Positions 3,160 to 43,920 of a stretch of DNA of 64,000 nt are shown one piece after another (within the stretch, counting starts at the first letter, position 1; every line of letters starts with the position of its first letter). A model generated the notes under the pieces. The model did not search any database, was not told the DNA's origin, and saw nothing but the letters and a program-made list of their open reading frames with translations. The stretch is from the NCBI GenBank assembly GCA_050084515.1, contig CM114271.1, forward strand, positions 3,224,001 through 3,288,000. The letters are read 5' to 3'. Origin of the DNA: Blasia pusilla. Its lineage: Eukaryota. The position numbers and the translations under genes are program-made.

Positions 3160-3458
3160 CCATTCTCCTAATGAGAGGCTTGGGTTACACACACAAGGCA
3201 AGGAGGACCATAGCTCCGCCGCCTAATGCCAAGAGGTTCAACAAAGAGAGAATGAGCTCTCAAGCTCTCTCTCTCTTGGAGGTATACCCCTTCCCTCTCC
3301 CAAGCTCTCTCCATGGTAACCTATGCACGCAGGTCATCTCCTTGGCTCTTGACCCGCTACACGCTATAGTAGATCATCCTCGACCTCCTAAGGCTGTCCT
3401 CTAGTATCTCCGAAGGCGCTCTACTAGATCTCGTCGATCTGTCCTAACAGACGTGACA
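3160..3458 (-). mobile_element. Truncated, internally deleted A-repeat of retrotransposon family 2
   Basis: Matches ~32460-32892 and ends ...GACGTGACA, which reads TGTCACGTC as the element 5' end on the minus strand. Confidence 0.8.
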
Positions 3459-5960: not shown

Positions 5961-6513
5961 ATTTTCTCTCTCCAACTAACCTAACCGCGTTATTGATAAT
6001 TAAATTTCCCCCCTCTCTCAAAGGGTTTGGGTCTAGGGAGACCATCAAAGCCATAATGGCATGCATCCATCCGTATACACAAGTTCTCTTCCATAAAGTC
6101 TATCCCTACACCCACACTTGTTCTTGAAGATGGACAATGTTCTATGATGTTCTTCTACCACCTAACCATGGTCCATGGTGGCTTCCACGACCGACCATGG
6201 TCAAGACACATGCCCATATTTTGACGTCACACGCTGGGCTGACAACACACCAAGTCTGGTTCAGTGCATGGTCCGGGGAGTTTTTTCACGATAGCTGGTA
6301 TGTTACCGGTGTTTCATAGCGTGGATCAGTAAATTCGGATGTCTAATCGGTTTTTCAGATACCTTTAAAAAGAAACCCCCCTAACCCTGCCTGTTTTTTG
6401 CCGACCAGTTTTAAATAAATCGGAAATTTCTGATTTTAAGCGACTAGGATTACTTGTAACTCCGGATCTTACTTGTAACATCGGTTCAGTGTGAGGTTTG
6501 TTTAGGGGTCCGC

Positions 6514-7295
6514 TTGGGCCTCCCCCAACCATCGGTGGTTGGTTCGACACACTGCGAGTGTCGCCGGAGCCTGGATCCACTTGGTGTGCATTTGGCACGC
6601 TGTCCAGTTGGAGGTGAGAGGATAGCCACTCACGATGCAGTGCGGGATATCATGTTCAGTATTGCTCGGGAGAGTGGCTTCCATGTGCAGAGAGAGAGGC
6701 ACTACTCCATGCGGGATTCCCTTATTCGAGCTGATCTTTACATGACACGAGAGGCTGAGGTGGTAGTGGCGGACGTGGTAGTTACAGATCCTACGTGGGA
6801 GGCAGTGCGAGCCCAAGTGGTGGCCCAAGGGCGAATGCTACAAGGAGCGGCGGCGGTGAAGAAGACACATATCTACAGTCTACTTCACGCGGGACACATC
6901 TTCATCCCCCTGGCCATAGAGATGTATGGGGCTATGGGGGAGAGGTTTGACTCGTTCCTTACGGACTGCGCCCATAATCTCCAATCGAGAAATGGGTTGT
7001 CCTTAGCTACTGCGATTCTCTATTGTACGCAGCGGGTCTCCATAGCTTTGCAGCGCGCCCAGGCTAATGGGCTTTTGCGGCGGGCTCAGGCTGTGGGAGA
7101 CGCCGACGCTAGAGGCCCACTTAGTAGTAGTCATAGCTCTCTTCTTGTTGCTAATATTATCTCTACTGTTGGTGAGTTTCGTCGTTAGGGGGGGAATGCC
7201 CCCTTCTTCCTTTTCTGGTCTTGTTGTGGCCTTCAGGTTTTGACTCTTTGAGTCCCCCCTCTTTTGTACTTCCGATGGGTTTTCCATCACACGTT
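6514..7295 (+). mobile_element. 5'-truncated CRE-like non-LTR retrotransposon: CCHC knuckle, restriction-like endonuclease and 3' UTR
   Basis: ORF 6514-7188: CEC..D..GVH...C..GG...THDAVRD, RADL...ADVVVTDP, KK..Y, FIPLAIEMYG, QRVSIALQR. The 3' UTR recurs at 50510-50630. Confidence 0.75.
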
Positions 7296-22360: not shown

Positions 22361-24289
22361 AGTTTTCAACCTTAAAAAATAATAATGGATTTGGAGTAGT
22401 AAGATTTAGAGCAAGATACCAGAGGTTTCTAAGTGTTGCATAACTCCTTGCCAAGAGAAAAATTTCTTGTAGGCTCCCAAAACTCCAATTATGGAATATG
22501 AAGTTATGAAATTAATTGGGCGTACGGCCAAAATTTCCGTAAAGACCAACTGAATCAACATGTTTCAACCTTCAAAATGACATTCTATTGGATGAATATT
22601 TACAAGTGATGGATGGAAAAAATATGGCTGAAAGATAATGATTGAGGATATTAATGAATAAAGATTGTAGAGCATGTGTTAGCGTCTTCATTGAAAATGT
22701 CTCAAATTTTAGAATCATATGCTTTCCAATGAAGATCTAGAAGGGATGGATGCAAATAATGAAGCTTGGAGGCTTGATTTGAGGATTTTTTTTTTATCAA
22801 GTGGAGGTTGGAGAGAAGATAGTGTCAACTATAGGATAGAAATGGGATGAAATTTCTCTTCAATAAAATGTTTTTTTAGTAGAATCGCTCTCATACATTG
22901 ATTTCCAATTTTTTTTTCTCAAAAATGAAATGATTGAGCCTACCTTATGAAGACAAGGTTCTAAGGTATATTTTTCATAGGATGTTATATAGTCTTTAAG
23001 AAATGGTATAATGAATCTTGTTGGTTTTGAGTTGTGATTCTATAGAGATTTCATAGAGTTTATGGTAGTCCTTTCAAATACTATTATTATTATGTATTCT
23101 TGAATCTTGATGTCTTACTAGCCTAAAAGGCCTTAAGTAAGTATGGTACATATAAAAGGATTGCCTTTCAAATTAAAATACTCTTAGAATTGCCTTGAGA
23201 ACGTATTGAGAAATACGCCCCTACAACGATGCCGTCTAAGAAAGAATTGGCCTCATAGTAGTAGGTAGTTTTCCCTCTTTTCTTCATGTTTGTATGATAC
23301 AACTTTGTGCTCAATAGCTAAAAATGATATGAACGACACCCCTAGGGTAAAAAATAAAAAAAGTTATGCAGATGATTCATCGCCATCTACTTAGTTTCTT
23401 CTTGCTTCTATAAACTGTGAGCTTTTCACCTAATCCTTCTAAAGTTCTCCATGCTTATAATTGAAGACGTTTATAAAAGGCATAGATATTTTCTCCCTTC
23501 ATATCAAACTTAATAATGTATCAAGATGTTAATGCTCAAACATCTAATTTGCAAAGAATTCTCAACATCTACTTTGTCATTCCTTGTTCATGTTTAGAGC
23601 TACTAAAAGTAGCCAAATCATAAACATAACCCATCACACAACTAACTCAAAAACATGGAGAGGTGAATGATCAAGCATCTACTTCAGAAGGAATTCTCAA
23701 CCGTATCGTGCGCATACACATTGCTACACAACATACATTGTTGTCGATAAGCATACACACAAACACACACAATCCCATGCTAACTCATGGCATCCAAACA
23801 ACGAGACAAGAAGTACCAAAATATCTCCAATAAATCAAGTAGATCTCACATCACGTCACATCTCTCTCAACAACTCACACCAAGCTCTCTATGGTGTGCA
23901 CTCTCTCTCATGTCAATCCAAACCTACTCTCCTAAAGGGAGGCTTGGGTTACACACACAAGGCAAGGAGGACCATAGCTCTGCCGCCTCCTGCCAAGAGG
24001 TTCAACAAAGAGAGAATGACCTCTCAAGCTCTCTCTCGTTGAGGTATACCCCCTTCCCTCTCCCAAGCTCTCTCCTCGGTAACCTATGCTCGTAGGTCAC
24101 CTCCTTGGCTCTTGACCTATTGTAGCGGGTCAAGGGCCACCTCCACAAGTGGAAAGTCAACTCTACTAAATATGGAAACTTATCCAAAATAGTAAGTTTC
24201 TCTATATAACTCCAAATGAGCCGAAACACGGACTCATCTTTAGGATGTCCCGGGTGAATCCTCACCGCGACCTCCTATCAGGTGATATA

Positions 24290-24615
24290 TGTGGAAAACT
24301 GCTAAACAAAACATAACTGGTGGAAAAATGACTCTCACACACACACACACACACACACACAATCATGGAGGACGAAATTTGCAATGAGAGAATGAGTGGA
24401 GGCTGGTCCTCTCCTCAATTATATAGGATATGTACAAGCAACCCTAACCCTACCCTTAACCATAGTCTCGAGTTAGACTAATTGTGATTAACTAACCCTA
24501 CTTAAGAGAATCGTGCTTAAGTGATTAACCAAGATTAAGCTTCCCTACTTTGTGTGAGTACCAAATGTAGGAGTTCATATGTCTCATAAGCTTGACTGTA
24601 ACTCAATCTTCAATA
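24290..24615 (-). repeat. copia 3' LTR
   Basis: Direct repeat of 27349-27662, preceded on the minus strand by PPT AGCTTGAGGGGGAG (24616-24629). Confidence 0.9.
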
Positions 24616-24683
24616 CTCCCCCTCAAGCTCATATTGATATCTCTAACGTCTAAATCCTTTCTAAAAATCTCAAACTTATCTCT

Positions 24684-25251
24684 AGACACGTCTTTTAGGA
24701 TAGATCTGTCAGATCTAGCAGAGCGCCTTCGTGAGTAGTGGAGGATAGGCTCAATAGGTGGAGGATGACTTACTGAGGCCCCGGGAAACGTGAGAGCAAA
24801 TTTCCCCATTGTTTCGGCTCATTTAGAGCCATATTGAGGAACTTATTATTTTAGGTAAGTACTATTTTTAGTATATGATCAACTTTTATTTTTGGTAAGT
24901 GGCCCTTGACCTCCATCAGGTCAAGAGCCAAGGAGGTGACTTTGGAGCGTAGGTTACCATAGAGAGAGCTTGGGAGAGGGGAGGAGTATACCTAAAGGAG
25001 AGAGAGCTTGAGGGCTCATTCTCTCTTTGTTGAACCTCTTGGCATAAGGCGGCGGAGCTATGGTCCCTTGCCTTGTGAGTGTAACCCAAGCCTCTCATTA
25101 GGAGAGTGGGTTTGGTTTGACATGAGAGAGTGTGCACACCTTTGAGAGTTATGGTGTGAGATGGTGTAGAGAGAGATTGGATCTTACTTTACAAAGAGAG
25201 AATGAGCCCTCAAGCTCTCTCTCCCTGAGGCATACCCCTCCCCTCTCCCAA
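24684..25251 (+). mobile_element. Family-2 A-repeat (element 5' end) inside the copia, ending in a fold-back inversion
   Basis: Matches 63031-63556 on +. 25191-25251 is the near reverse complement of 24970-25030. Confidence 0.8.
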
Positions 25252-27336
25252 CTTGGATGCTCTTCTATCTTGCTTTGGAAAAGGAAATCTAGCTTGTTTT
25301 CCAAATTGGCAAGCAGGAAATACCTCTAACGTAGCATGACTGGCTAATTTAGGGAGTCCTATTACTATATTAGATGATGAAAAAGTATATAATCTTTGAA
25401 GATTGATATGTCCAATTCTTTTATGCCACACATTTAGATTTGTGACTTGTTGGCCGATTTGACCATACATTGCTATTTGAATCTTTGGCACAGAAATATC
25501 TAATTTGAACATTCTGCCAGATCTAGTTCCTTTGGCTATTGTAGTCTGGTCACCCATTGATTCAATGAAACAACCATCTGCGTTAGACTTCACTTGATAA
25601 GCCTGTTCTATTATCTGTGCTATAGATATCAGATTTCTTGCAATAGTAGGAACATAGAGAACATTTCCAAGAGCACAAAGACCATATGATGCTATTGGAA
25701 CTTTACAGGTATGCGAGATATGATGTTGAGTGTCATCTCATGTGAGCACAATTGCAGGATCTTTCACCGGCTCCAAACTATTGAACCATTTAGCTTGTGA
25801 GATCATGTGATTTGATGCATCAAAGTCAATGTACCAATCTGTTGTCAAGTCTTTCTTCACCATTGCTCCCATATGATGAGTCATGACGAAGAGATGCTAT
25901 GTTTGTGAATGTTGTTGTTTTTGGTACTACTCTTGGTAGTGTTGCTCCACATAGTTTTATTGTTGTAAGGATCCTATTCTCATATCTTCCTTCTTCTTGA
26001 AACAAAACTTTGCATATTGACCCTTTATCCCACAGTAATTGCAAGATCCAGAGACCCTTTGTTGCTGACCTCGATCCCAACGATTTCCACCATCACCACC
26101 TTGTGATTGTGTCTGGTACTGGTTCGTAGTTGATTGAGTGACATTATATTGAGTGCCTCTTCCTCCATATGCTTCATATCCACCACGACCACGGAAGTTT
26201 TTGCCATGACCCCTGCCTCTGTTTGATCCATAATCTGCAAATAACGCACTCTCTTGTAGATTAGACGAGCTACCGCTGCCTACTAGGTGCATCTCTTCAC
26301 TGATCAATAGAGGAACTAACTCTTGAAAGGTTGGATATTTCTCTCTCACAGAGATAGAGGTCTCAAAGGACTTGTAATGCTTTGGAAGGCCTTGAAGAGT
26401 GAATAAAATCAGATCATCATATTCTACTGTCACTCCAATGCTATTCAACTAATCAACAATATGTCTGATACTCAAAATATAATCATTGATGCTCTACGAT
26501 CTTTTCCTCACTACGTTTAATTGTTGTTTCAATTGAAGCTTTCTGGCCTTTGTAAATGTCTAGAATAACTTTTCCAATGCATCCCAGGACTCCTTCGGAG
26601 TATCAACATCTTGGATGTGACCAATCATTGGCGAATTGATCGTTATTGCAATGTCGTGGATTACTTGCCTTACACGTTTGTTCCAAGTACGAACATTCAA
26701 GTCTGTTGAGTCACCTTCTAGCTTGGCCTCATCACCTATGACAAGCTCCCATAGTTCTTGACCCATGAGAAATTATTTCATGCAAAACTTCTAGATATTG
26801 TAATTCTGCTTGTCTAGCTTCTCGCCTGTGATTGATGTTGAGGAATACTCCATGATAAACGATTTCACTCACAAAAACATAATTTCAGGCTTTCTACTGC
26901 TCCAATTGAAGCATAGACTACTCTTACACAGAAATTGACCTAAAATTTGCCAAAATTGATCAAATGTAAGAAAGAACTAGTCGAAATTGGCTTGTAGAGA
27001 GCAAAGTACACAACTTTTCTTCACTAATTGCACTTTCCTACACGTCAGAGTGTCAGAATCGAGCAATTTTGGGTGCGTTGGAAAGCTCTCAATGAGCTCT
27101 ATAAGACGTCTAGAACAACCTTTGACATCATTCTAGCCAAAGCGGACCCAGATGGCTGAATCAACCGGGAAAGCCCTAAAAAACGCCTCCAAAGTTTTAT
27201 CACCGTCAAAGCTCCACTTGAAATCTGCACCCACTAAGTTATGAATAAAATTTCCTTCTCCCAAACTGAAATTTTGCCTTCTCTTGCCTCTCTTCTCTAT
27301 TCAAACACCAAGAATTTCAAGTGATGTTCTCCTCCC

Positions 27337-27348
27337 GCTGTGATACCA
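27337..27348 (-). promoter_or_regulatory. copia primer-binding site (tRNA-iMet)
   Basis: TGGTATCACAGC directly after the 5' LTR; one mismatch to TGGTATCAGAGC. Confidence 0.85.
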
Positions 27349-27662
27349 TGTGGAAAATTGCTAAACAAGCATAAGTGGTGGAAAACGGCTATCACACACA
27401 CACACACCACCATAGAGAACGAAATTTGTAATGAGATAATGAGTGGATTCTGGTCCTCAACTCAATTATATAGGATATGTACAAGCAACCCTAACCCCAC
27501 ACTTAACCATAGTCTCGAGTTAGACTAGTTATGATTAACTAACCATAGTTAAGATAATCGTGTTTAACTCACTAACCAAGATTAACCTTCCCTACTTCGT
27601 GTGAGTACCAAATGTAATAGTTCAGATGTCTTATGAGCTTGACTATAACTCAATCTTCGATA
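27349..27662 (-). repeat. copia 5' LTR
   Basis: Direct repeat of 24290-24615, followed by the PBS on the minus strand. Confidence 0.9.
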
Positions 27663-30600
27663 ATATATTGTGTGGTACTCGCTCCACCTAAGGATGTCTG
27701 TATCCGGAATGGACAACGCTCCACATGGGCCCTCGTCAAGCCCAAACCTCTGAATGCCGCTTTCCCCAACATGAAGGGGTTGCGCTCCTGAATCCAACCA
27801 GATGCATTGTGGACTAAAAGCTCTATCTCTTGGACTCACCAACTGGAAGACCTCTCCCCGGTTATCCAACAAAATAACACAAGGAGAAGCCATGGCAAGC
27901 TCTATCGCGGGTCTAGTGGGCATCTCCGCCATCCTAGCAATTGCAACCTGCCACGAATGTGACGTGGATGGCCCGAGCATCAGCTCCAAGGGCAAGTCCA
28001 TCACCTCCTCTACAATCACCTTTGAATGTGATGCATGAACTCCAACTCCAAGATCACATAGCGTAGCAGCCAACCGGAAAACCTCGGCGGGGGTACTTTC
28101 CAACGTCATAACATCGAAAGCAGAAAATAAAGGAGCGCGGTACACAATGGTGGACGCCCCCAACAACATACTTGACACATTCCCCTCTTGAGCATCAACA
28201 ATAGGAGTTGTGGCACTCTCTTCTCCCATCGCCAACTCTCCGAGAACTCTTATCAGAACCCGTCGATGGGGTCCTCATTGCCTCGAACAACGTGAAAGAC
28301 TAATGAAGACTGGTCTGTTTCTTGGCTTCCCCCCGCTGTGGATCCAAATCTGCGACTGCTCCACGCGTAACAACTCCAAGGGCCTCCATCTGGGCAACCC
28401 CGCACATCCAACCAGGATCCTCCATATCTATGGCGGCTCCATAAGACATCGATGCCACGGATCCGGCATCGGGTAACCTCAATGCCATAGTAGCAATCTG
28501 CTGCTGTAGCTGATGTATCTGAGCAGCCATCCCAGCCTTACGCTTGGCATCTCCCTCAACGCGTCTAGGTGGGGGAACTTTACCTCCTCCATGAACAACT
28601 CCATCATCCCCTTGGGCGAATCCATCTTCTCGTCTCCCAATGGGACCACCTGGTGCACGGCCTCTAGGCCCACCTAGACCGGCAACTCGCTATGGTGCCC
28701 TCTCTGGCCCTCGATCCAGACGTAACTTATGGTGCAAGCACAAATACTTGGCGTGTGTGTGACCTCTGAAATTAGTCACATTGATAATCTCTTGGTGCAG
28801 CCCCATCTCCTCCTCCATGTTACGGTAACCGACCATGACCCTGACGAAAGCAATGGTGTTGATGATGGGCTCCACCACATGACCAAAACGTAATCGTAGA
28901 CGGTTGCTGCTGAGCCGCATATGAAGGCGCAGGTCTCTGTGGCACGGCCTCCCGATATCCTCCCTTAGCTTGTGGTGTCACAGACCTATCTCGGAATCCA
29001 CGTTGTTGCATTGATGGTGCAGAAAATCGTGACTGCTCTCCTCCGCCATGTTACGCTCAATATTCTCGGCCGTCCTTAAAACATCTCTCAATATAGGGGA
29101 GGTGTTCATAAGAAGTATCCCCTCCTGCACATGTATCCGCAAGGTCCGGTCCAACATCGCGTACCATGACTAGATAGCATGAGCCTCTGTCATCCCCTGA
29201 GTGACGTTAATCAACCGGCGCAAGCGGGTGTAGGCCTCATGCAAACTCTCACCCGGGAGCCTCTGGAAGTCGTGGATGCTCCGCAACTTCTCCGTCCGTA
29301 CCCCCTGGTAGCTCGCCCTCAACTCAGCAAAGAACTCAACCACGAGGTTGAACCTCGGATGAACTCGACTGGACAATGCAACTGCTCCAGTGTGAGTCAC
29401 CCCTCCTACAACATCACTGATGGAGGAACCCTCTCCTAAATCCTCCTCCTTATCAAGAAACGGATCAGTCCATGCCACATAGGGTGGGTCATAGTAGAAT
29501 CGCCATTCCTCAATCTCTTGGGCATATCTGTGGGGGAACTCATGATAATCATCCATGGGTGCCCTCTCTAAATGTTGGAATGTACCGTTCCATGTTGTAA
29601 ACAGGTTGAACTCTCTAGAGTTCCTAGCCCGTTGTGAGTCACACCAACTACTAAAATCCGCAATGAAGTCCTGTAGCTCTATGATGCCTACAGCACCCTA
29701 AGCGGTCATCTACCCCGATCGTCCATCTCGTACGCCCAACTGGTAGGACCACTCAATGTGTGCGGTGGATCACTAGCACACTCTTCTATACTCTCCCCCT
29801 CGTTTGAAGACAACACAAAAGGAGACCGAGGTGGTCTCTCATGTGGAGACTCTGGAAACTTCACACCACTCCGGGCAAACCCTCTAGAGCTACTCTTAGG
29901 TCCACCACCTCGCCTCTCAAAGTCCCAAAAGGACACCGTGATGATCCTCATGCCCCTCTCACACGATCACTTTCAATCTCACGAGTAATCACTCAATCAC
30001 TCAATCCAACAATCGGCTCTCTATCTACACTCTCTCACTTAGACGTGTCTTGTGCGGCAACATGCGGCGTGGTGTGGCAAATCATCGACTGCCCTATCAT
30101 CTCATCGGCAAGACACACCCTCAACTTTGGACATCCCACACATGTCTATGTCCCCTAACCCATACATCAATGATGCTCTCACCATCAGCCCGAAACCCAA
30201 TATCCCCAAATAACTTCCCAATACCCGGAAATCCCTAACGCGTGTAGGGCAAAAGACCAGAATGGGTAATCTGAATGTCTGTGTCGCTCCTCACCAATTG
30301 CAAAACCTCGACCCCAACTCGGTCGTGAAAACAACTCCTCCAAATAGTATGTCGTACTCCCCTGGTACTGACGGTGCTCAAATCTCCTCAATGTGCGGTG
30401 CGGGTCCAGTGGTACGGTACGGCAGTGGCGGCACGGAACGGCACGGCACTCGAGAATGGGGTGCGGCATTGAGTGGCATACCCTCCCCAACAACAAAACA
30501 CACACTCTGCTCCCAAGTGATGGTGCAGCTCCGCGATCAAAAAGTGCGGTGCGGCCACGAGCGGCACCGCGCAGCAATTGGCGACGTGTTGCGGCTACGA

Positions 30601-33600
30601 GCGTCACAGCACGTTATTGGATCGTCGCCGAGTGGCTACAAATCACAACGCAGCAAAGCGGAAAAGAATGGAGACCCCATCGACCCAAAATATCACCTGT
30701 CATTCCTGAGCGGTCAATCCTCAGTCGATCGATGTCCAAACGGCGACTGAAAAATCGGTGGCGGAGCTAATGACAAAAATCAACGGCCGTCAATTACTCA
30801 ACGGAAACTGACAGCTGCAGAACACCGACGGATGTCGGTCGGACGGACCCAGTTGGTAGCAGCGGACGGCGTAGGTGCGTAGCCGGATGGAGCGACGCAC
30901 AGTAGGACAGCGACTCAACCCGCGGCAGACGAGAGGGAGACTTCAGGTTTCGATGGGGTCCCGGCAACGTGACGCCGACAGTCGCGTAGGGCGCGTAAGG
31001 CACATAGGGTCGGCTGGTAGAGCCACCGAAGAAAGACCGCGACGGATGGACGGCACGTGGCACAGAAAGCGGCGAACTATGGCTAGCGGCAACTCCCCCT
31101 AGCATACGACAACGGAGAGGGTCGCAGACCGGGTGTAAGGCGTCGGCTTGACGCAGCCGGTCGCGAGCCGGATCACAGAGACGGCAACTACGTCGAGCGA
31201 CGGCAGCAGGTCAGGGTTGGCCGAAGGCAGGAGCTCCAGACAGTCACGACAAGAACACCAGTTGACGCACATCAATTTTCTGGCACATACGGCGGGCCCG
31301 CGATAGTAGTTGGGTACCGCCGCTACCGCGGTAGTAGCCACGGGACGGCGGCTGGTCGCGACGCACACGACGTGCGAGCAAAGTGGGCGGCTTCGTAGCA
31401 AGGTCGACCAGGAGGCACGGAGCAGGTGGCGACTCCGGCTAGCTCCCCCACGGCTGTGGCAACCTAGCGAGGCTACGGCAGCTTATGAATCCGTGACAGC
31501 AGGCCAGGCCACGGCGGACCGGGCTGAAAGGCGCGTCTGCGGGAGCAGTAGCGATCGGAACGCGTCGGAGAGGCTGACGGCAGAGCCGGGCGGATGTCGT
31601 CCCTCCCCCAAAATTTTGTCTTCTTACTAAAATACCCCCCGGAAAAACTGGGTCGAAACTAAAATTGCTTAACTTGACTCCCCCCCCTCTGACAGATTTA
31701 CAAATTGGATGATTCTCCGCAATCAGTGGGTCAACTCTCCTATTTTATTTTTCACTCAACTTCTACCTCTGAAAACATTTGTCCCTTGTCCTACCCACTG
31801 AGATGACACATAACTTTTTTTCTACCCATCACCAAGGATTTTGGAAATTTCACTCATACCTTGGGACGGTGGCCATGGCAGCCCAACAAAAACTATTGTA
31901 ACTTCACGCTCAGCTCATGAAATTGCGCACCATTTCTTCTCCATGTGCACAACTTCTTGATCTATGACCTCGTTGAAATGGTTTCTCCATTCGACCTTCC
32001 AATAAAAACTGGCAGGAACTGTCGTGCAACTCAACATCTCTTCTCCTACACAAAATTTGGCAGCGCTTCCGTGTTGATTTCTCCCAGCGCAAATCGAAAA
32101 CTTGTGAAAACATAAACCAGCAAGCTACACGATGCTCTCGAGAGCACCGGCATGGGGCAACCCGCCCCCATACTCAATCCCTATCAAAAATTGGGCAGCG
32201 CTTCCGCGCGCCACTCTTCCACACAAAAAATTGGCAACCGCAAAGCACAACCAAAGCCACTCTTGCTCCGGTGAGCACTCCCATGAGTGGCTGAATGGGG
32301 AATACGGTCCCCAACCTCCAACAACAGCGAGTGACCAGCGAGCTCCTCCATTGAACTCTCTCACTCTCTCATTCTCTCTTTGTAAATCAAGTAGATCTCA
32401 CATCACATCACATCTCTCTCAACATCTCACACCACTCTCTCTCATGTCAAACCAAACCCACTCTCCTAATGAGAGGCTTGGGTTACACACACAAGGCAAG
32501 GAGGACCATAGCTCCGCCGCCTCATGCCAAGAGGTTCAAGAAAGAGAGAATGACCTCTCAAAGCTCTCTCTCGTTGAGGTATACCCCCTTCCCTCTCCCA
32601 AGCTCTCTCCTCAGTAACCTATGCTCGCAGGTCACCTCCTTGGCTCTTGACCTGTTGTAGCGGGTCAAGGGCCATTTCCCAAAGTGGAAATTCAACTCTA
32701 CTAAACATGGAAACTTACCCAACATAGTAAGTTTCTCTATATGACTCCAAATGAGCCGAAAGAAAGGGGAAACCTGCTCTCTCAGGTTTTCCGAGACCTC
32801 AGCAGGTCATTCTCGACCTCCTCATCCTGTCCTCCTCTACTCGCAAAGGCGCTCTACCAGATCTCTCTGATCTATCCTAAAAATTTGTGACAACCATCAC
32901 CTTCGCCTCTTCTTCCTCGTATGAATTCTAACCTTCTCGCTTTTCCCTTCTCCATTCTTGTAGATGCAAAGGATCGAAATGAAAAAATTCGCAAGCATAC
33001 ATTGACATTGCACAACCACCTCAATAAAAGGAGAACAAGATGTAATTTCTAAAGGAAATTATACGTATGAAAGGGCTCATAATAAACCCACAAATGTGTA
33101 CGCTTGTGTGTAAGTCCAAAGAGCCATTTATTTTTATACTTATGTTGAATTCATCAAGTTTTCACAAGATAGTTATAAGATACAAAGAATCTAGGGGTTT
33201 ATTTGCAAGTGCTTTGGAAGTGTTTTACAAAGATTTTGTAACTTTGTGATTGCGCTCTAGAAAAGTCAATGTATTTTGCCACCTAGAACTCATAAACTAT
33301 CAAAGCAATTATATGGAAATCATCCAATAAATGTATGGAATTCTCTAATAAGAGGGGTCTAAACCAATGAGAATATAAAAACTTGAAGTTTCTAAAGGAT
33401 GCATGATAGTTGTTCATTTATAAAGAGCCATAAAAGAGAGAATCTTAGAAAGTGGAAAATCTACACCTAGCCTTATCAAAAATAACCTTGCGCCTATTCA
33501 TCCTCAGGCTAGAGGCACAAGAGTTAGACGTGGATTATGATTCAAGAGGGGCTCATACAAAACAAGTCATCTCTAAGGGATTTCGGACCTAAGACCTACA

Positions 33601-34093
33601 CCTCCGCAATGAGCACTCCATCCACTCCCTGAGTCTCCAACGTGATATGAACGGTATTAATAAAATTCTAAATCTGTTATCCAAAATAGAACATATGGCT
33701 TCAGGATTTTGACCTCGGGGTTAACTAACCCAAGGATGAATAGGCCCAAGGAAAAATAATCTTGATCACCATATGGAATTTCTACATATGAATGTAACTT
33801 GAAGTCTTTTTTTTTATATATAAATGGTTCTAAACTAATGCATTGGGTCTAACAAATATTTCCTTGAAGGCTTAATGGGATTTCATAGGTGGTCTTGCAA
33901 ACTCTGTAATTCACAAAAAACTGATTTTAAAAGATTAGGTCGCTCTTTCCTTCTTCATCTTTCCTAATCATGGATTGCTTAAAGATTAGAAGAACAATTA
34001 AATGGCTTTATAAAAGTACATTTGACTTGCTCATGATTGTACACACAGTTTCTCTAAGTCCAAAAACTTAAGTATATGAGAATAGTAGCTGGC

Positions 34094-34461
34094 TGTCATG
34101 ACCATACGAATTATGTCGTAGAGTATAGCGTGCTAATAGAAGCCATACCTTATGTAGGGCCATAGTGTCTAGGTAGAGATGCGGTTTCATACATAGGGTT
34201 GGGGGTTACTCAGTTGAGGGTGACTTTTCCAATAGGGCCCGCTCTTAGGTTGGAGGATATAGTGTGGAGTGCACTCAAAGAACAGTTAGTTCTTTGAGTT
34301 GAGCCTGTTGCGTTGGAAGTTAGCCTTGGTAGTGAGTAGAGCTCTTGGCTATGGTGGTTCTCGTAAGCTTCGACCTGGATTCTCCCATCGTGGAGTGGGT
34401 TTGGCTCGACAGGATGTGATTCTATACGTGTTTTATGACAGTAGGTCTTTCATGGATTTCA
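34094..34461 (+). repeat. Split repeat A1 (368 bp)
   Basis: Colinear with 42986-43353; about 17 mismatches by manual count. Confidence 0.95.
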
Positions 34462-35020
34462 CTCAAAGAACTAGAGTAGATCGATGGTAGCTTCGATTGT
34501 GGATCAGTAGGATATGGTTAGGGCTGATTGTGTACTCAGACGTGGATGTTCGTGGCTTGTGGCCTATGTTGGAGTTGGGAATCTGGTGCATGGTTGGTTG
34601 GTAAAGAATTGCCTTGCTAGAGCTTTCCAACGCGCTTTAGATCACTGGATTTCGTTAAGGGAGTTGGAAGTTGGAGAGCTTGGAGTGAGGAAGCTCTGTT
34701 GAAGTTCATCCAGATCGGGTGAGAGGTTCTTGTTGCTACTTGTATTGTGATCTCATATGAAGCTATATGCTTGAGTGTTTGGAGCATTGTGTATTTCTGC
34801 GTGCATGAATCTGGGTGGAAGCGCTGTCGGATTTGCGATTCCGGAGGTGTATGGACAACAAGTTTGTCTGATTTTAAGCTCGAAGTACAGAGCTCGGTTG
34901 TAGCTGATTTTTTGTGGAGAGATAGCTATGGTGGTCAATTGAATTCTGGTTGAAATAGATTCAATTTTGGTTGAGAATTTGTGGAGTAATTTCTGATCAA
35001 AATTTTGCGGACTAGCTCAA

Positions 35021-35080
35021 GGTCTGGCTATGGTGGACAGCAGATCGGAGGGTCTGGCTATGGTGGACAGCAGATCAGAG
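35021..35080 (+). repeat. 2 x 30 bp tandem repeat in the element's 5' leader
   Basis: GGTCTGGCTATGGTGGACAGCAGATC(G/A)GAG twice. Confidence 0.9.
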
Positions 35081-35807
35081 AGGCTTCGAGGCATCTCGTG
35101 GTAGCTCAGTGCAAGTGGGCGTGAGAGGCGGAGTAAGGATCAAGGATTAAGCAAGAAAGCTTGCTTGCTTGGGCATGAGGCAGGTTTTGCAGGATTTGTG
35201 ATTTGAGTGTTGCATAACTGGTCACCCATCTTTGGGCTATTCTGCCTGGAAGACGCTTAACCGCTGAGTTCTTAACTATGCTAGTGTACACACTGGTGTA
35301 GCTCATTTGGTGTTGTTCGGAGATGTGTTAGGCGCTTTATGCATCTCAGGTTTTTGGTTGATGGATCTCTAGCGCATAGTACGGTGTAGCCTCTCCATGC
35401 AGTTGATATTTTCAGGTGCTGCGAGTCCGACTAGCACGTCATCGACCCGCGGCGGAGTAGTTATTGCGTTAGAATTTTGTAGTGGGTTCTGTGGATTTAA
35501 GGGGCGCCACGTTTGGTGGATTGTGTTACCTTGATTTCCATTTGTGATTAGAGGGTTTTCGTTGGACTTCCTGTGTTTGGATCCCCTCCATCCTTGCTTC
35601 TTGCTTGCGCGCCCATTGTTAGGGTTGACGTTGATTTCCATAGTAGTGTTACTCCTGTGTGCTACCGGTAGTGAGGCTGGAGTGATGACCAGTAGACCGT
35701 GGGAGCTTTCTTGTGGTGATGACACGTTAGGTTGCCTACACCCATAGCTAATAGAGCTAGAATAGTACAGCGACATCGACGTCACTTGGCTACTTAGTGG
35801 TGGTAAT

Positions 35808-38300
35808 TTGGTGGTGGTGCGGCATCGGCGTTGGTCATCACGGAGCTGTCTGGTGGCCTGGTTGGGCCTGGTTGGGGACCGTGATGCGGACAGTGGTGGT
35901 TTTACACGGAGTGGATTGAGGTATCTACTACCTTTTCCACTTCTGACGGTTGATGAAGAGAAGGACGAGGGTGTTCCAAACACCGAGTCTTCTACGTTGG
36001 TATCGAGTGTTGCAGCTCCATTGATTTGGGACATGGACGAGATATATGGGGCCATGAAGGGCCCACGATGATACTCGGATGCAGTGGACACCATTGAGTT
36101 GGAGGACTTCATGCAGGAGTTTGATACGTGATGTGATATGCAGCTGTTGCGGAACGCCACGTTGTTTACACCCTTCTTGGCTAGGAAGGGGTTGTTTCAA
36201 CACTTGGAGGGACCACCCATGGACGATTACCATGAGTTTAGGAAGGACCATGTTGTTGAGATTGAGGCGTGGAGACAATATTGGTCTCCAGGCTATGTGT
36301 CTATCACCCATGGTGGTATTGGTAGTAGTGCTCCTACTATGCCAGCCAGCCCGACGTTGAGTGGTACGAGTACGAGCAGGAGTGGGAGTACCAGTGGAGA
36401 TACCGGTGGGGGTACTAGTGGAGGTACTAGTGCCCCACCATCGTTCAGCCTGCTTGTAGAGTTCTTCAAGAGGTTGAAGAAGAACTATCAGGGAGTGAAG
36501 ACAGAGAAGTTGAGGAGTCTTCAAGAATTTGAGCGAAAGATTGGTAAGAGTCTTCGTGAGGCATACACTTGTATGCGTCGCTTGATTTCACTTACCCAAG
36601 GTGTGACTAAAGCTCAAGAAGTCAAGTTTTGGTATGGGATCTTGGACAGAGAGTTGCGCCGCAGGGTATATGATCTACTCTTATGAGTGATGATTCACCC
36701 ACATTGACCCATGTGTTTGCTCTATCTGAGAAGATTGAGCTTAATATGGTAAAGGGGAGAGTGGTGACATCCGCATTCAGTAGGGATACAACTACTACTT
36801 CTCGTGTTCAGCAGCCCATCTCACATTCTCGTAGTAGTGGTGGTGGTAGTAGTAGTGGGAGTCGTGGGGGTTACACACGACCTCAGTCAGGTCCTAGAGG
36901 GACACTTGCGTAGAGACCATTGCCTTCATTTGCTGCCCCGAGCAAGGACACTCATGTTGGACATGTGGAGCTGATCATGTTAGGAGTTTTTGTCCCCAAG
37001 AGGATGGGAGACGGACTTTGGAGGATGGGCCTCAATCGGCCCCAACTCAGAGTGATCATTGCGGGAGACCAGGTCATCCTCGAGAGCGTTGCTTTGATCT
37101 TCATCCAGAGTTGAGATCAGGCCGCAGCCGTGGTGGAGTAGCTCCGAGAGGCCGAGGTGGTAGAGGTGGTAGAGGTGGACCATTGGTTGGAGAGCCTACG
37201 GTGGCTATCCCTACCACTACGACAGAGTCAGCTATGGCTGCCAGGATTGAGCGATTGGGAGCGGTTGGCTTCTATTGTTGGTATCCAAAGATAGATCAGG
37301 TTCGGGAGCAGCGGCTTCCACCTCTTATGGAGGGATGATCTCTCTTATATGGCGAGTGCAAAGACCGAGGTTGAGGCATCGCAGCGATTTGAGAGGAGCC
37401 ACTCGAGCGTTAGAGCCACCTGGTGCTACTGTGGAGTTGGACCCACAGAGGGGTGAGGTTGGGAGGCAGGCTAGGCTTCCCCAATCATACTTGTTGTCTG
37501 AGGTGCTTAGGACTCCATCCATGGTTCCTACGCAGCCTATTGAGCCGACAGTGGGGACCGAGGCATCTACATCGCGTGTAGTAGACACGGATGCAAAGAT
37601 CAATGCAAAGATTGTGCGGATGGCAACTTTAGTGTTGGGATCCCCATTGTTTTCGGCCACGAAGCTGATGGCTTGAAGAGTTGACTTAGCTCGTGTATTT
37701 CAGCTAGCAGCCACGTTGTGTGAACGTGGGGATGTTACTGCTATACGTGCTGAGGTGGATGAGGGTGTTGCGGTGGAGCGACCCTCTATGTCAGGTGTAG
37801 CATTGAGTACTAGTGCTACTTGGCAGGCAACAGCGGCGAAGATGGATGCATTACCAGCCCGGCCAGCCATTGATCGTGAGAGGCTTACACCTGGTGTATG
37901 TATGTTGGACAACCAGAGTGGGATATTCCGATTGGTGAGTCCTACAGGACATGTGTATAGACCAGATAGAGTCTTGTTAGACTCTAGTGCCTAACCTTTG
38001 ATGTTGGGAAAGGCGGCATGTATTGGTTTGGGTATTCGGAGGTCAGAGCTTGAGCCTTGCCCATTCCAGATTCAAACATCACTTGGAGGAGCCAATGATA
38101 TGTCTCAATTCATGACACGGGAGAAGTTTTCTGTACAGTTGAGACCAGATCATGTGACTGATAGCTCCCGATTGGGAGTACCTACAGTGGTCACATCAGC
38201 CGAGTCATATGATGTACTAGTTTGAGGAGCATTATTGAACCCGATGGGTTTTCAGATGGATTACTGGACTGAGACAACGTCTTATAGACCTGGTAGGCAA
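35808..38300 (+). pseudogene. gag (two knuckle remnants) and aspartic protease of family 1, interrupted
   Basis: Gag-like ORF 36138-36686, knuckles CWTCGADH....C (~36955) and xDHCGRPGHPRERC (~37050), protease VLLDSSA*PLMLG (~37970-38010) and SYDVLV*G. Confidence 0.8.
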
Positions 38301-38699
38301 TCCGGGGATGGACGTATGAGCCAAGTTTATGTGAGATTTGTTTATGGGGCTCGACCAGGAGGGTCTTCCCCAACAGCGTTAGCATCTGTGGCTGGTTTTA
38401 GTGGAGTAGTCACTTGGCCAGGACAATTTTTGGAGGGTAATGTTTCCGCTATGGATTCTCTTGTGCATGAGGAGGTAGAGGAGGTCCCTATTTTTGTAGC
38501 AGTGGCATCCTCATCATTGGATGTGCCACTTTGGAGTTCAGGCGGTGCACTACGGCAGGAGGCTGATCGCCTAGTGCAGGAGGCTTGGTGTGAGGTTGTT
38601 ATATCTCACGAGGAAGAGGAGGCCCCACGGCGGACTCCTACTTCTGGTCCAGTTGGGTTATCTCCTTTGGATACTACACCCATTGTATGGCAGTATCCG

Positions 38700-39640
38700 C
38701 CGAAGGGCATTTGTGTGTTAGATCTCTTTGGTGGGATTAGCATTGGTTTGGCTCTAGTGTTGCAGGCCGGTATTCCTGTGCGGAGATACGTGTATGTGGA
38801 GCAAGATGAGACGGCCCAGAGAGTCTCATCCCGACATATTGGTCAGTTGATGCGGAGATATCCTGAGTTGTTGCCGCCATCAGCTATTCGTGGGTACTAG
38901 CGTGGTTTGCCGTCACACATTGCATTGTTGCGGGCGCAAGACCTTGAGAGGGTCGGTCCTGTGGATTTGGTGATTGCTGGATGGCCATGTCAGGGTCATA
39001 TACGTGTTGGTTGTGGTAAGGGATTACACGACCCTAGGTCTTGATTGTTTTGGGAGATGTTACGGGTGTTACAACATCTTCAGGTTCATCAGGCACGTGT
39101 TCCAACTTACATTCTGGGTGACACTCGGACCCAGATGATGGTGAGTGTTCATGAGGTGCGGTCTTGGATTGGACCAGAGGTGTTGTTGGATGCAGTGCGA
39201 GTTGGCTCACGTGCACATCATCCACGCTTGTGGTGGACAAACTTGTTTCCTAGGGAGGTTCTACGTCGAGCATATGATGTAGTGCAGCGGGATCCTTGCC
39301 TTACAGTGGATAGTATCTTGGATAGTGGGCGACTTTCTCAGGTGGTGAGGGTTATTGATCGGTCACCCATGGCAATGGTGAACCGTGTGGGCCAGCCTAG
39401 GATGGCACTACCCACATTTGTGAGTTTTCCCTCGTCACATGCCTACAAGGAAGGTGGTCTCGGGCTTGTATGGGATTCTCATGTGCGACAGTTGGTGGAG
39501 CCTAACGCTGATGAGAGAGAGCGTGCGATGGGATTTGCTACTGGTGAGACAGTGGTTGCTTCCATTTCTGAAGCTTCACGACGTCATGTGTTGGGTCAGG
39601 CCATGGACCTGAATTGTTTGACTTGGATTTTGAGTCTTGG
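38700..39640 (+). pseudogene. C5 DNA-cytosine methyltransferase domain inside pol
   Basis: One frame read through stops at 38898 and 39042: motif I VLDLFGGI (38715), motif II YVYVE, motif IV DLVIAGWPCQG (PCQ at 38985-38993), motif V DPRS*LFWE, motif VIII LDAVRVGSRAHHPRLWWTN, motif IX ERERAMGF, motif X LGQAMD (39591). Motif VI (ENV) is absent. Confidence 0.9.
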
Positions 39641-39980
39641 TATGGACGAGCAGCGTCGACTTTGGACTATGTCCATGGGTCTTCCACCCCTTGTGATGAG
39701 CTCGATGGCTACCGGGACGGTAGAGGCATCGGCTGGGGGCAAGGATAGTAGTATTTTGCATCCTTGGAGTAAATGGGATGTAATGGCTAGGCATGTGGAG
39801 TTGGTTGCTCATGCTGGTGGAGGAGTTATTTGCTCAGATGATGGTGTAGCTAAGGGTGTACCATCTTGTGAGGGGATTGCGTAGTAGCCAATGGCATCGT
39901 CCTCTCCCTCTAGTGTGCCAGTGGAGGAGACTTAGGAGCCATTACTTGGGCCCAAGCTTACGGGAGGTGAGAAACGACGC

Positions 39981-41000
39981 TTGACACAATTCCTACGTGC
40001 TTATAGGAGTTGTTTTGCCTTGAGCATGAAGGAGTTGGGTGCTTTGGTTGGACCCGGTATACGGATTGATTTGGCTAGTGATATGCCAATCTTTCGTCGT
40101 CCCTACCGATATAGTGATATGGAGAGGGACCTGATTCAGACTAGGACGTTGGACCTTTTGGAGGCTGGATTAGTGGAGTTGTCGCATGGAGAATATGCAC
40201 CTACCGAGTTTCAGAGAGTGATGGACAGCATCCTAGCAGGGTTGGATTTTGTTTGGTGTTACATTGATGATATCTTGGTGTTCAGTAACATGGTGGAGGA
40301 GCATCATATACATTTGCAGATTGTGTTCGAGCGGTTGAAAGCTCATGGTCTACGTTTGCATCCAGGAAAGTGTAAGTTCTTCCATGAGGATGTTGAGTAC
40401 TTGGGTCATGTGATCTATCCAGGTGGTTTGGGAGTTCAGCAAGCAAAGGTGGAGGCTATTGCACTTATTCCGCGTCTGGTAGATGTGAGTAGAGTTTGGG
40501 AATTCATGGGATTGGATTACTACTATCGGAGGTATGTGAAGGGATTTAGTGCTATGGCAAAGCCTTTGAACCAATTGCTAAAATCATATCAAGAGTGGCA
40601 CTCGGGAGATGATCAGGAGAGAGATTTTGTGGAGCTCAAGGCCTAGTTAGTGGCGGCGCCTATCTTGAGGAGACCTATCAAAGGGCGCCCATTTCAGTTA
40701 TACACCGATTGGAGTAGGTTGGGACTTGGAGCGGTGTTGACACAACATGATGATGAGCACATGGAGTTTGTGGTGGCCTATGCAAGTCGTTCGATTAATA
40801 CAACGGAGTTGTGCTACAGTTCATATGAGGGAGAGTGCTTGGCAGTAGTGTGGGTTGTGGCACACTTTAGGTGTTACTTGTTTGGCGCACAGTTTACCCT
40901 TGTTACTGATCACCAGCCGCTCAAGTGGTTGATGGAGTTTGACAAGCTTACAGGGAAGCTTGCACGGTGGGCTCTTATCTTACAGGAGTATGACTTCTAG
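39981..41000 (+). pseudogene. Reverse transcriptase (internally deleted) and RNase H
   Basis: RRPYRYS, PTEFQRVMD, CYIDDILVFS, KCKF, YLGH; RNase H LYTDWS, YSSYEGECLAVVW, TDHQPLKWL. Confidence 0.93.
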
Positions 41001-42704
41001 GTGATACATAGACCTGGAGTTGCCAACCTTGATGTTGATGGGTTGAGTAGGAACCCATGTACTAGCCAAGAGGATGCAACTGGGGCTAGATGGCATGGCG
41101 AGGTTGATGAGGAGATGGTGCCAGGTTGGCATGCATCCGCCTTTTTATGTTGGTTAGGGGTGGACTCTAGTATGGAGGACCACATGACATCTTACTCTAG
41201 TCAGAGGGTAGATGGCCAGCCTTCAGATCCTAAGGTTGGAGATGGTGGTACGGATCAGCGTGATATTCATGATGATGCATTGGTGTTGGAGTTCCTACGG
41301 ACCAGTAGGGTGCCAGGCATAGTGAGTGCCAAGGAGCGAGACCGTGTTCTTCAACATGCTAAGAGGTATCGATTGGAGGGAACACATATTCTCCGTGTGT
41401 GGGAGGATGGTAGAGTACGAGTAGTGCCGCATTTGGCTCGGAGAGAGCGCATTGTGCGACATGCCTATGAGGAGTTAGGACATTTTGGGGTAAAGCGTAC
41501 GTATAGCTTACTCCTTGGTCAGTATTGGTGGCGTGGCATGCATACTCAGGTGCAGCACTTGGTGTCATGTTGTATGGTTTGTGACCGGGTGAGGGCATCA
41601 TTCAATGCTCCTACACCACAGTTACACCCCTTGCCTATTATGGGGTTGGGTTACCGTTGGAGTGTGGACTTTGCGGGACCGTTACCGTTGAATGTACGAC
41701 ATCATCGATATGTGTTGGTGATGGTGGAGCACTTCTCCAAGTGGATTGAGTCGGTAGCATTACCTGACAAGGCAAGTGAGGAAACGGCGTATGCCTTTCT
41801 TGATAGAGTGCTTAGTCATTTTGGTGCACCAGCTGAAGTGCTGACCAACCAGGATACAGAGTTTCAGGGTGAGTTTCAGGTCTTGTGTGACAAGGCGTTG
41901 ATTGATCATCGGACCACGTCTCGAGATCATCCAGAGGCGGATGGTTCGGTTGAGCGTGTGTTTCAGAAGGTGAAGAGGGCATTGTGCAAGTATGGCCTAC
42001 AGAAGGGGCATCTTGGAGATTGGGATATTCAGTTGCCATGGTTAGCCATGGGGTATAGGTTCAGTCGCCAAGCATCCTTGGCTTTCTTCTCACCTTATTT
42101 TCTCTTATACGGCCGAGATCCAGACTTGCCAGAGGAAATTCGTCAAGAGTCTAGTGAGGTGGTGAACCTTGATAACCCAGAGATGTGGATGAGAGTGTGT
42201 TCTCAGCGGGCAGAGCTCTTTCAGAGAGTTATGCCAACAGCCTTTGAGAACCTTGCCATGGCTCAACACAGGGAAACGTTGCGGTATGCAACCATTCGGG
42301 GTGGAGGTTATCGACCATCGATTCGTAGGTTCCATGTGGGGGACTATGTCTATGTGCAGAAGATTGCATCGACAACGTTGGATGTGACGGCAGGTCGCAC
42401 TATTTTACGAGTGCGCGAGGTGTTAGCTTATGGAGTTCTCATGTTGGAGGGTTGTGATGGAGTTTTTTGGAAGGACCATGTGCGTAATTGTACGCCATAT
42501 CATCTTCCAAATGTGGATGGTACTCTTGAACCAAGCTTAGCCATGATACGTGCTAGCTTGAGGTGCATGTTGTGTGGATCTACTGGTAACGTAGCCCGTA
42601 TGTTGGTGTGTGATCGGTGTTCTAGGGATTGGCACATGATGTGTTTGACTCCACGTATGGATGTTGTTCCTACTGGAAGGTGGGTTTGTCCTCGAAGTAC
42701 TTAG
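41001..42704 (+). pseudogene. DDE integrase with a C-terminal PHD finger
   Basis: HHCC-type GHFG...CMVC. Core SVDFAGP / VLTNQ (D>N) / SVER. C-terminus CMLC...MLVCDRC...WHMMCLTP....P.GRWVCPR at 42564-42701; the last Cys is lost. Confidence 0.92.
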
Positions 42705-42876
42705 GAGAGGTAGATGACTTGATCTTTGCATGATATGGATTACATATAGGCAACTAACGATGGGGCAACCTAGCACCCGACCTTCTGATTCATGCACCCA
42801 AGAAGGTGTATAGCATGTAGTAGATGTATAGGGCTACCTGGGAGTTAAAGGGACCTAACCGCCAGTTAGAGGCGCA

Positions 42877-42983
42877 AGTTGTGGTACACTTGTGTTTGTG
42901 GATGCTCTCGTCTATGTTATGTATGTATGTGAGTATGGTATGTCAGCGATGTATGTTGTATGACGATGTGGATTCGCACGATA
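42877..42983 (+). repeat. Split repeat B1 (107 bp)
   Basis: Colinear with 43353-43459. Confidence 0.95.
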
Positions 42984-42985
42984 GC

Positions 42986-43353
42986 TTTCATGACCATACG
43001 GATTATGTCGTAGAGTATAGAGTGCTAGTAGAGGCCATACCTAATGTAGGGCCATAGTGGCTAGGAAGAGATGCGGTTTCATACATAGGGTTGGGGGTTA
43101 CTCACTTGAGGGTGACTTTTCCAATAGGGCCCGCTCTTAGGTTGGAGGATATAGTGTGGAGTGCACTCAAAGAACAGTTAGTTCTTTGAGTTGAGCCTGT
43201 TGCGTTGGGAGTTAGCCTTGGTAGTGAGTAGAGCTCTTGGCTATGGTGGTTCCCGCAAGTTTCGACCTGGATTCTCCCATTGTGGAGTGGGTTTGGCTCG
43301 ATTGCATGTGATTCTATACGTGTTTTATGACAGTAGGTCTTTCATGGATTTCA
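42986..43353 (+). repeat. Split repeat A2
   Basis: Copy of 34094-34461. Confidence 0.95.
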
Positions 43354-43459
43354 GTTGTGGTACACTTTTATTTGTGGATGCTCTCGTCTATGTTATGTAT
43401 GTATGTGAGTATGGTATGTTATCGATGTATGTTGTATGACGATGTGGATTCGCACGACA
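43353..43459 (+). repeat. Split repeat B2 (element 3' end)
   Basis: Copy of 42877-42983; ends CGCACGACA. Confidence 0.95.
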
Positions 43460-43920
43460 TGGGCAAGTTGATCTAAAATTTTCTCAATCCTATCCCCGGC
43501 ACCTATTCATCCTTGAGTTAGATCAAGAGGGTCATAGGGTGAGTTAGACAAGGAGGAGTACTAAAAAAAACCTTGAGGTGTGTGGCCAAACTTGAGCTTA
43601 GGACCAACTAATCTTCAAGGAGCCTATTTCCCGCTATGATAAAATATCCTACATGCTAGGAGGGAGAACAACAAATAATTTATTCTTTTATCCATTTGCA
43701 AACCCATAGTAAGTTACCTTAACCACAATAAGAAAATCCAAGGATGAATAGACTCAAACATCCTATCTTATGATGTGGATAGGTAGGCCCTTGAAAGTTT
43801 CATCATAAGTGTAGCAGAATGTTCATATTTCAAATATTAAGCCTTCTCACACATACATATCATATCCATAAGGTTTCTTGAATTCTTGCAAGGGAAAAGT
43901 GGGCATGACATTATATCTTA

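Follow-up and report, generated by a model that had tools for sequence, protein, structure and literature searches.

The window analysed here is a 64,000-nt stretch of the Blasia pusilla genome (contig CM114271.1, hereafter C1, positions 3224001-3288000); the genome searched comprises 390 Mb in 26 contigs. We confirm that positions 23704-32892 of the minus strand hold a deleted, copia-interrupted copy of the second of two Ty3/gypsy families in this window, with ends of the A..B-A-B type, in which repeat A1 stands alone at the 5' end and B1, A2 and B2 follow one another at the 3' end. The features of this copy of family 2 are as follows.

32893..32896, minus: 5' target-site duplication (TSD) TGGT, with the partner CGGT at 23703-23700
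32384..32892, minus: repeat A1, 509 bp, begins with TGTCAC, the left integrase end
32580..32583, minus: TATA-like box (putative function), ~30 nt upstream of the self-primer segment
32539..32551, minus: predicted self-primer, complementary to the primer-binding site (PBS) with one mismatch in the window copy, 168 nt before the A end
32371..32383, minus: PBS-like 13-mer, immediately after A1
29700..32370, minus: leader, matched parts 77-87% identical to other copies
29094..29697, minus: gag core, stop-containing, 43% identical to family-1 gag (E 4e-48)
27663..28274, minus: start of pol with the aspartic-protease DSG motif, cut by the copia insertion
24290..27662, minus: nested Ty1/copia element, internally deleted, long terminal repeats (LTRs) at ~27662-27348 and 24615-24290, TSD TATAT
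24688..25254, plus: extra family-2-type A with PBS and a ~63-nt fold-back of the A interior, replacing copia pol
24227..24284, minus: remainder of the protease region, ends at the deletion joint
23832..24226, minus: repeat A2, first ~130 bp lost in the deletion
23704..23831, minus: repeat B2, 128 bp, canonical A/B joint, ends with CGCACGATA (other copies, CGCACGACA), the right integrase end
23700..23703, minus: 3' TSD CGGT

TGGT and CGGT constitute a 4-bp TSD with one transition, so that both ends of the window copy belong to a single insertion. As the preliminary description of this DNA had stated, A1 (~510 bp there) is continuous with the leader, and A2, which is 89.9% identical to A1 over 397 bp, runs directly into a B segment given as ~127 bp. 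The same description held that B1 had been lost with an internal deletion, and the joint bears this out: protease-region DNA (24281-24227, 85-87% identical to three other family-2 copies) is fused to A2 near position 131, some 55 bp beyond the copia element that interrupts the protease region. This deletion took the DNMT, reverse transcriptase (RT), RNase H (RH), integrase (IN) and PHD regions, B1 and the start of A2. In the nested copia element, the Retrotran_gag_2 and gag_pre-integrs domains were matched.

A copy of family 1 in the same window served as the comparator.

34094..34460, plus: repeat A1, 367 bp, with TATA at 34258, predicted +1/self-primer at 34288-34299 and TSD TGGC at 34090-34093
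34461..34472, plus: PBS-like 12-mer
36070..42704, plus: gag-protease (PR)-DNMT3-like-RT-RH-IN-PHD, broken by stops and frameshifts, DNMT call taken from other copies
42840..42876, plus: conserved hairpin and purine tract, resembling a polypurine tract (PPT), preceding B1
42877..43459, plus: B1 (42877-42983), GC spacer (42984-42985), A2 (42986-43352) and B2 (43353-43459), followed by TSD TGGG

The proposed resemblance between the B repeats of the two families is evident from a local alignment score of 45, compared to a mean of 18.9 and a maximum of 32 among 300 shuffles, with the identity concentrated in the last ~65 bp. The A repeats were described as unrelated, which holds for their sequences, with no score above those of shuffles (29 vs a maximum of 29; 26 vs a maximum of 30), but not for their architecture, given that both contain the GAGTGGGTTTGG 12-mer and the same spacing between TATA box, primer and A end. 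The homology of gag and protease to family 1 is likewise clear, the protease-containing frame being 36% identical (E 7e-27), and the family-2 DNMT shows 43-66% identity to that of family 1.

The preliminary description further proposed that the A..B-A-B layout is a lineage trait and not a one-off rearrangement, in which case full-length copies of family 2 should contain B1-A2-B2, a DNMT and a PHD domain. A search for family-2 B yielded 3930 first-look candidates, and 29 loci besides the window copy were classified: 13 read 3'UTR/PHD-B1-A2-B2, five consist of internal DNA (int) followed by B, eight are A-B without an upstream B, and three are unclear. One family-2 locus (L043) retains the complete order gag-PR-DNMT-RT-RH-IN-PHD, and another (L032) extends from A1 through DNMT-RT-RH-IN-PHD to B1-A2-B2 between AATT/AATT duplications; the full family-2 order is gag-PR-DNMT3-like-RT-RH-IN-PHD-B1-GC-A2-B2, with TG..CA ends and 4-bp TSDs, so that RT, RH and IN are present along with everything expected. 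At 30 family-2 5' loci, no B was found directly before or after a leader-bearing A. Extension of 20 family-2 5' ends by 10 kb allowed the 3' end of the same element to be scored in four cases, the others being interrupted, rearranged or out of range; in the five copies with both ends, one TSD is perfect, three match at three of four positions, and one at two of four. Family 1 contains 575 B1/A2 junctions that fit an exact pattern, and B2 is kept after A2 in 20/20 fetched copies, which were selected on B1/A2 alone; eight of these copies reached A1, with six perfect TSDs, one that matches at three of four positions and one degraded 3' end. A metagenome scan detected 80 loci, of which 53 were examined and 52 had enough downstream DNA: a B..B repeat is present in 19/52 (many of them redundant assemblies) and the A..B-A-B layout in four, with a perfect 4-bp TSD in 3/3 relatives with both ends intact. 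The trait is thus shared by family 2, family 1 and metagenomic relatives.

The window copy, which lacks B1 and is heavily rearranged, could by itself be taken for an ordinary element with A+B LTRs, altered by a one-off rearrangement, a nested insertion or an assembly artefact, and solo A-B units with 4-bp TSDs do exist. Such an explanation is barely credible given the 575 exact-pattern junctions in family 1, the occurrence of B1/A2 in RNA reads, and the repetition of the layout in two families, in metagenome contigs and, according to the accessible sections of the respective report, in Klebsormidium (PMC5890265). In full-length copies, A1 is followed by the PBS and never by B. No family-2 copy was seen to have ordinary A+B LTRs at both ends; instead of identical LTRs, the ends are A and B. 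The preliminary description associated such ordinary LTRs with a PBS and a PPT; sequences resembling each are present, the PBS-like one at the A1 end and the PPT-like tract before B1 and not before A2. The solo A-B units amount to nine rows in family 1 (five perfect TSDs, three matching at three of four positions; one row is a mis-called full element and two rows are the same insertion) and five rows in family 2 (two perfect, one matching at three of four positions, two failing). For the A-int-B (L044, L060) and solo A-B forms with TSDs, direct integration and later recombination fit equally.

The encoded proteins place these elements within Ty3/gypsy. The integrase is of the rve type, with the catalytic motifs present, and the gag-PR-RT-RH-IN order, DDE integrase, TG..CA termini and 4-6 bp TSDs typical of Ty3/gypsy are all found; for the RT of one relative, the closest solved structure is Ty3 (E 2e-94). 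No tyrosine recombinase family was detected in three database proteins, seven longer stretches and, from three copies, 19 open stretches that each span 130 aa or more, a search that a short remnant in broken copies could escape. The split direct repeats are of the DIRS type, whereas the variable 4-bp TSDs contradict the absence of an ordinary TSD in DIRS elements. The DNMT region is a DNMT3-related C5 methyltransferase domain: it matches Pfam DNA_methylase, and all 29 of its 29 PDB matches are DNMT3A/B/C. The PC and FGG motifs of a putatively active enzyme are visible. In the RT-RH tree (55 rows, quick tree search), families 1 and 2 group with proteins from Marchantia, Closterium, Klebsormidium and Haematococcus (SH-aLRT 100), and five chromodomain rows fall outside this clade; the two Klebsormidium proteins, which are incomplete and lack a DNMT label, are possible KnitGypsy-Dnmt3 copies (see below). 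The closest named proteins of the element come from Marchantia, Calypogeia and Sphagnum. Two relatives from the RT search (P0106 and P0115) contain, together with PHD, PF05869, which we take to be an adenine methylase, in place of the C5 methylase label.

Three cis signals recur at fixed positions. First, the 12-13-mer right after A1 is, in either family, complementary to a segment that lies ~170 nt before the A end and follows a TATA-like box by ~30 nt. With a 13-mer and 0-1 mismatch, such a self-match was obtained for 33/40 family-2 and 8/17 family-1 PBS matches, mostly 165-181 nt before the A end, and in most of the failures, A1 carries a deletion or an interruption, or the match is not at a genuine A1 end. 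A blind scan (TATA, 26-33 nt, 12-mer) recovered both primers and a different primer/PBS pair in the distant relative L234, along with several low-complexity or inverted-repeat matches, and gave no matches on shuffled sequence. The primer and PBS thus show both complementarity and covariation, and their pairing is part of the minimum free energy fold for families 1, 2 and L234. Second, a hairpin and a G-run immediately precede B1 in all aligned families. Third, the B1/A2 junction reads GACA-GC-TGTC, that is, the two termini of the element head to tail with a 2-nt spacer; this palindrome is kept in six families or relatives, and when the first 100 listed of the 575 family-1 junctions are considered, 95 have a spacer of 2 nt. 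A minus strand that begins at the A end and a plus strand that begins at the B start would together define a reverse-transcribed LTR of the form B-GC-A, with the attachment (att) ends in the middle of it.

Several further observations concern these signals. In the modelled folds of family 1 and L234, a local hairpin forms over the primer segment when the upstream U3 is included, as it is in A2, and the 3' copy of the primer could thereby be held back as a competitor for the PBS. In the family-2 copy L044, the segment pairs partly upstream and partly downstream. Decay of the GC spacer yields AC, GT and AT, as would be expected from CHG methylation of CAGCTG. Two loci, L132 (minus, near 5257-5100) and L064 (near 604-200), have the same hairpin/G-run and B 3' end and represent a third and possibly a fourth family in this genome; the L132 spacer reads TG instead of GC. 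Longer self-primers were considered as a common event and rejected, the single family-1 copy that matches an extended PBS reading as a 4-nt duplication; the matches of an extended PBS in L007 and of the predicted PBS of the L221 family are both the reverse strand of A itself.

If the LTR is permuted in this manner, the A2/B2 joint is where the cDNA ends meet and should carry leftovers of the primers, which the templated A1/PBS joint should not. Genome-wide, the A/B joints of family 1 include 711 canonical ones and 80 with inserts (n=791), compared to 0/820 inserts at the A1/PBS joints with the same left anchor (Fisher p 2e-26). Of the 80 inserts, five can be read as the beginning of the PBS (the entire 12-mer in two cases) and 22 as the end of the purine tract (18 a single G, one 9 nt); the rest are 40 with one extra A, which may reflect a blunt join or a decayed G, nine with one extra T, one AG and three fillers. 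Templated B/A spacers vary in length in 5/100 cases, none with primer sequence. The A/B joints of family 2 vary in 43/135 cases, with PBS, PPT and combined remnants, although eight of the 43 may result from T-run slippage. When 45 family-1 copies are placed on a tree, seven changes are needed for the eight rows of the AA type (7.5 when shuffled) and ten for the 13 rows of the other variants (11.3 when shuffled), a scatter that implies repeated origin; the canonical rows cluster, but these were picked for likeness to the window copy. At L181/L182 (family 1, C1:15.95-15.96 Mb), the PBS and 158 nt of leader lie between A2 and B2 within a perfect TCTC duplication, and the metagenomic L191 has a templated filler plus CG at its A/B joint. 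Both whole-PBS inserts sit in solos, and solos make up 8/30 variant loci, which is at most suggestive.

This evidence bears on the possibility that the elements combine an integrase with replication of the DIRS/PAT/Ngaro type, whereby the RNA would span A1 to B2, the A/B joint would be RNA-templated, and the internal B1-A2 would serve to rebuild both ends. The A..B-A-B topology is indeed that of PAT and Ngaro elements, as far as the accessible parts of the sources go (PMC7192593, PMC5890265), and the majority of the A/B joints are identical, as templating would have it. However, a templated joint should not gain PBS or PPT remnants at 80/791 sites against 0/820, the variants are scattered on the tree, the PBS and PPT are positioned exactly at the A end and the B start despite the unrelated A repeats, and RNA depth is low over B2, so that we regard this scheme as quite improbable.

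We consider it probable, though by no means assured, that these are integrase-encoding Ty3/gypsy elements whose LTR is circularly permuted relative to the integration ends, with the cDNA ends joined in each cycle and the internal junction cut. Transcription would start inside A1, ~170 nt before its end, and terminate in A2; the first 12-13 nt of the RNA would pair with the complementary site after A1 and prime the minus strand in a Tf1-like fashion; and the plus strand would be primed from the G-run before B1. Ordinary strand transfers would then produce the linear cDNA (B-GC-A)-int-(B-GC-A). The A end is joined to the B start anew in each cycle, as the inserts indicate, either through ligation into a 2-LTR-like circle or through an end-to-end jump of the RT, mostly on the shared A. 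RT is known for end-to-end clamping, and retroviral circles for primer remnants at their junctions. The DDE integrase would open GACA^GC^TGTC of the left LTR copy, the staggered cut leaving CA-3' ends with 2-nt overhangs, as in a processed retroviral end, and the product inserted would be A-int-B-GC-A-B, with the observed ends and 4-bp TSD. In the window copy, the pol-B1 deletion and the copia insertion would have come later. Under this mechanism, B is conserved because it contains the right att end and abuts the PPT, whereas A drifts but keeps the TATA-primer-PBS geometry; the suggestion in the preliminary description that B holds a conserved cis signal is borne out to the extent that its conserved part is the right-hand integrase end together with the B/A palindrome.

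The order of joining and cutting could also be the reverse. In that case, with the same permuted LTR, the integrase would cut the left junction of the linear cDNA, the B stub would be kept in the intasome, and the host would repair the break between A end and B start in the chromosome. The inserts and fillers, among them the templated one with CG in L191, would also be explained by this order, which would require no free circle and could yield a one-sided cut if the left junction becomes double-stranded first. Error-prone repair should, however, lose more than is seen, given that in family 1, ~90% of the joints are precise and overlap by a single A, and that all 20 fetched family-1 3' ends, even if selected on B1/A2 only, retain B2 after A2; we find cutting before joining unlikely.

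A number of observations weigh against the joining of permuted cDNA ends as we picture it. The ~90% exact joints exceed the share in host-ligated retroviral circles, which is lower; single-base inserts could partly be ordinary slippage; and the matched A1/PBS control comes from family 1 alone, so that the 43/135 of family 2 stands by itself. A circle has two equal B/A junctions, and cutting of the other one would give A-B-A-int-B, yet this product is nearly absent: on C1 up to 48.4 Mb, B/A lies upstream of 1/99 A/PBS sites, compared to 34/91 A/B sites, and in family 2, it is seen at 0/30 5' loci. A plain symmetrical circle is therefore insufficient; one-sided cutting could stem from timing, if the left junction is double-stranded first, or from an RT jump with a displacement fork. 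The sole candidate for A-B-A-int-B as a real product turned out to be a normal copy with a long insert. The family-2 locus L042/L043 (C3:19.379-19.399 Mb) reads int-B-A-B(partial)-A-leader-gag..PHD-B, either a head-to-tail dimer or a nested insertion at the B2 end. Finally, the 5' ends of RNA reads accumulate at 34255/43147, which places them 33 nt upstream of the predicted start; no pile-up listed from three RNA runs falls at that start, 34288.

These three runs were aligned to window positions 31700-43600, the reads being mostly 90-99% alike and those from A1 and A2 indistinguishable. Both families show sense transcription in all three. The reads include the B1/A2 junction, and the bin that contains the A2 end and B2 has a depth of 15-22, down from 89-149; these results agree with the proposed mechanism. 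One of the expressed copies lacks ~1 kb of IN and another lacks the purine tract and half of B1.

Apart from the two elements discussed so far, the window contains other family-2 DNA and several unrelated features. In the extra A inside the copia element (24688-25254), the fold-back copy of the A interior extends upstream past the TATA box, and this unit may stem from the capture of a strong-stop product that had a long primer, or from fold-back repair. The 5' end of another family-2 element (A1, PBS, leader) occupies 63031-63872+ on the plus strand, and a truncated family-2 A without B lies at 3159-3459 on the minus strand. An intronless 1165-aa frame for Integrator subunit 3 (Ints3_N, E 2e-166) extends over 55658-59155 (minus), and a 242-aa open frame without a Pfam match over 6460-7188 (plus); the motifs of the latter presumably correspond to a zinc knuckle and a restriction-like endonuclease of non-LTR elements. 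A 90-bp palindrome at 61880-61969 was dismissed as a TA microsatellite.

The closest described system is KnitGypsy-Dnmt3 of Klebsormidium nitens (de Mendoza et al. 2018, PMC5890265), a Gypsy element with a DNMT3-related domain in Pol and repeats whose structure is reported, in the sections covered, to match that of a DIRS retrotransposon, defined there as A-coding-B-A-B; both features recur here, and two RTs from Klebsormidium belong to the 100-support clade of families 1 and 2. The differences are that the elements described here reside, in hundreds to thousands of copies, within a plant genome of 390 Mb and have relatives among named proteins of Marchantia, Calypogeia, Sphagnum and Closterium, and that the covered sections of PMC5890265 contain no TSD, PBS, PPT, junction or mechanism. 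Our literature search, which did not extend to subscription journals and Repbase Reports, found Gypsy-DNMT3 elements only in that paper and, mentioned in passing, in a 2026 preprint (10.64898/2026.05.21.726589), and found no paper on permuted LTRs in Gypsy. PAT-like and Ngaro elements, as described in the accessible text, have split direct repeats A1..B1-A2-B2 and a tyrosine recombinase (PMC7192593); the present lineage shares with them the internal copy of the end-to-end junction but differs in its rve integrase, Ty3-type RT, TG..CA ends and 4-bp TSDs. Tf1, Sushi and Tcn1, also Ty3/gypsy, prime themselves without tRNA through a PBS complementary to the RNA 5' end (PMC6317226, PMC4600332, accessible parts), and here too, the PBS directly follows the 5' repeat and is complementary to the predicted RNA 5' end; those elements, however, have ordinary identical LTRs and, in Tcn1, chromodomains, in contrast to the PHD, DNMT and split ends seen here. 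The foamy virus integrase cleaves a palindromic LTR-LTR junction, according to the part of the report that was accessible (PMC1180852), and the predicted opening of a CA-(short spacer)-TG palindrome by a DDE integrase would resemble the action of foamy virus and HIV-1 integrases on 2-LTR junctions. In those viruses, the att-att junction arises by cDNA end joining, as a side route, whereas here it lies within the LTR and is copied from RNA, the end-joined A/B site being a different, non-att one. Troyka was rejected as a match, with CG..CG ends, 3-bp TSDs and, by the available description, repeats that are not split.

The layout and the DNMT were thus already known, and the second family is a further member; what is new is the evidence on the mechanism and the probable range in land plants, which widens the distribution of DNMT3-carrying Gypsy elements from one alga to, probably, a bryophyte. 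LTR retroelements, in the textbook account, integrate linear cDNA, with its own ends as att sites, and 2-LTR circles lead nowhere or serve as a side route. In this genome, thousands of copies bear signs of the reverse arrangement. We hold it evenly balanced whether a Ty3/gypsy clade widespread among streptophytes normally integrates by way of an end-joined, 2-LTR-circle-like intermediate, its integrase having to cleave an LTR-encoded att-att palindrome endonucleolytically. LTR finders that require two identical LTRs and a TSD would be expected to miss or mis-cut this clade. If our reading is right, the A..B-A-B ends are the footprint of a permuted LTR, and these elements provide a natural, abundant and still transcribed system for testing integration at a pre-formed junction, as well as an interpretation of split direct repeats at large that can be put to the test; the same logic may then explain the split repeats of PAT and Ngaro, bridging integrase and tyrosine-recombinase retrotransposons.

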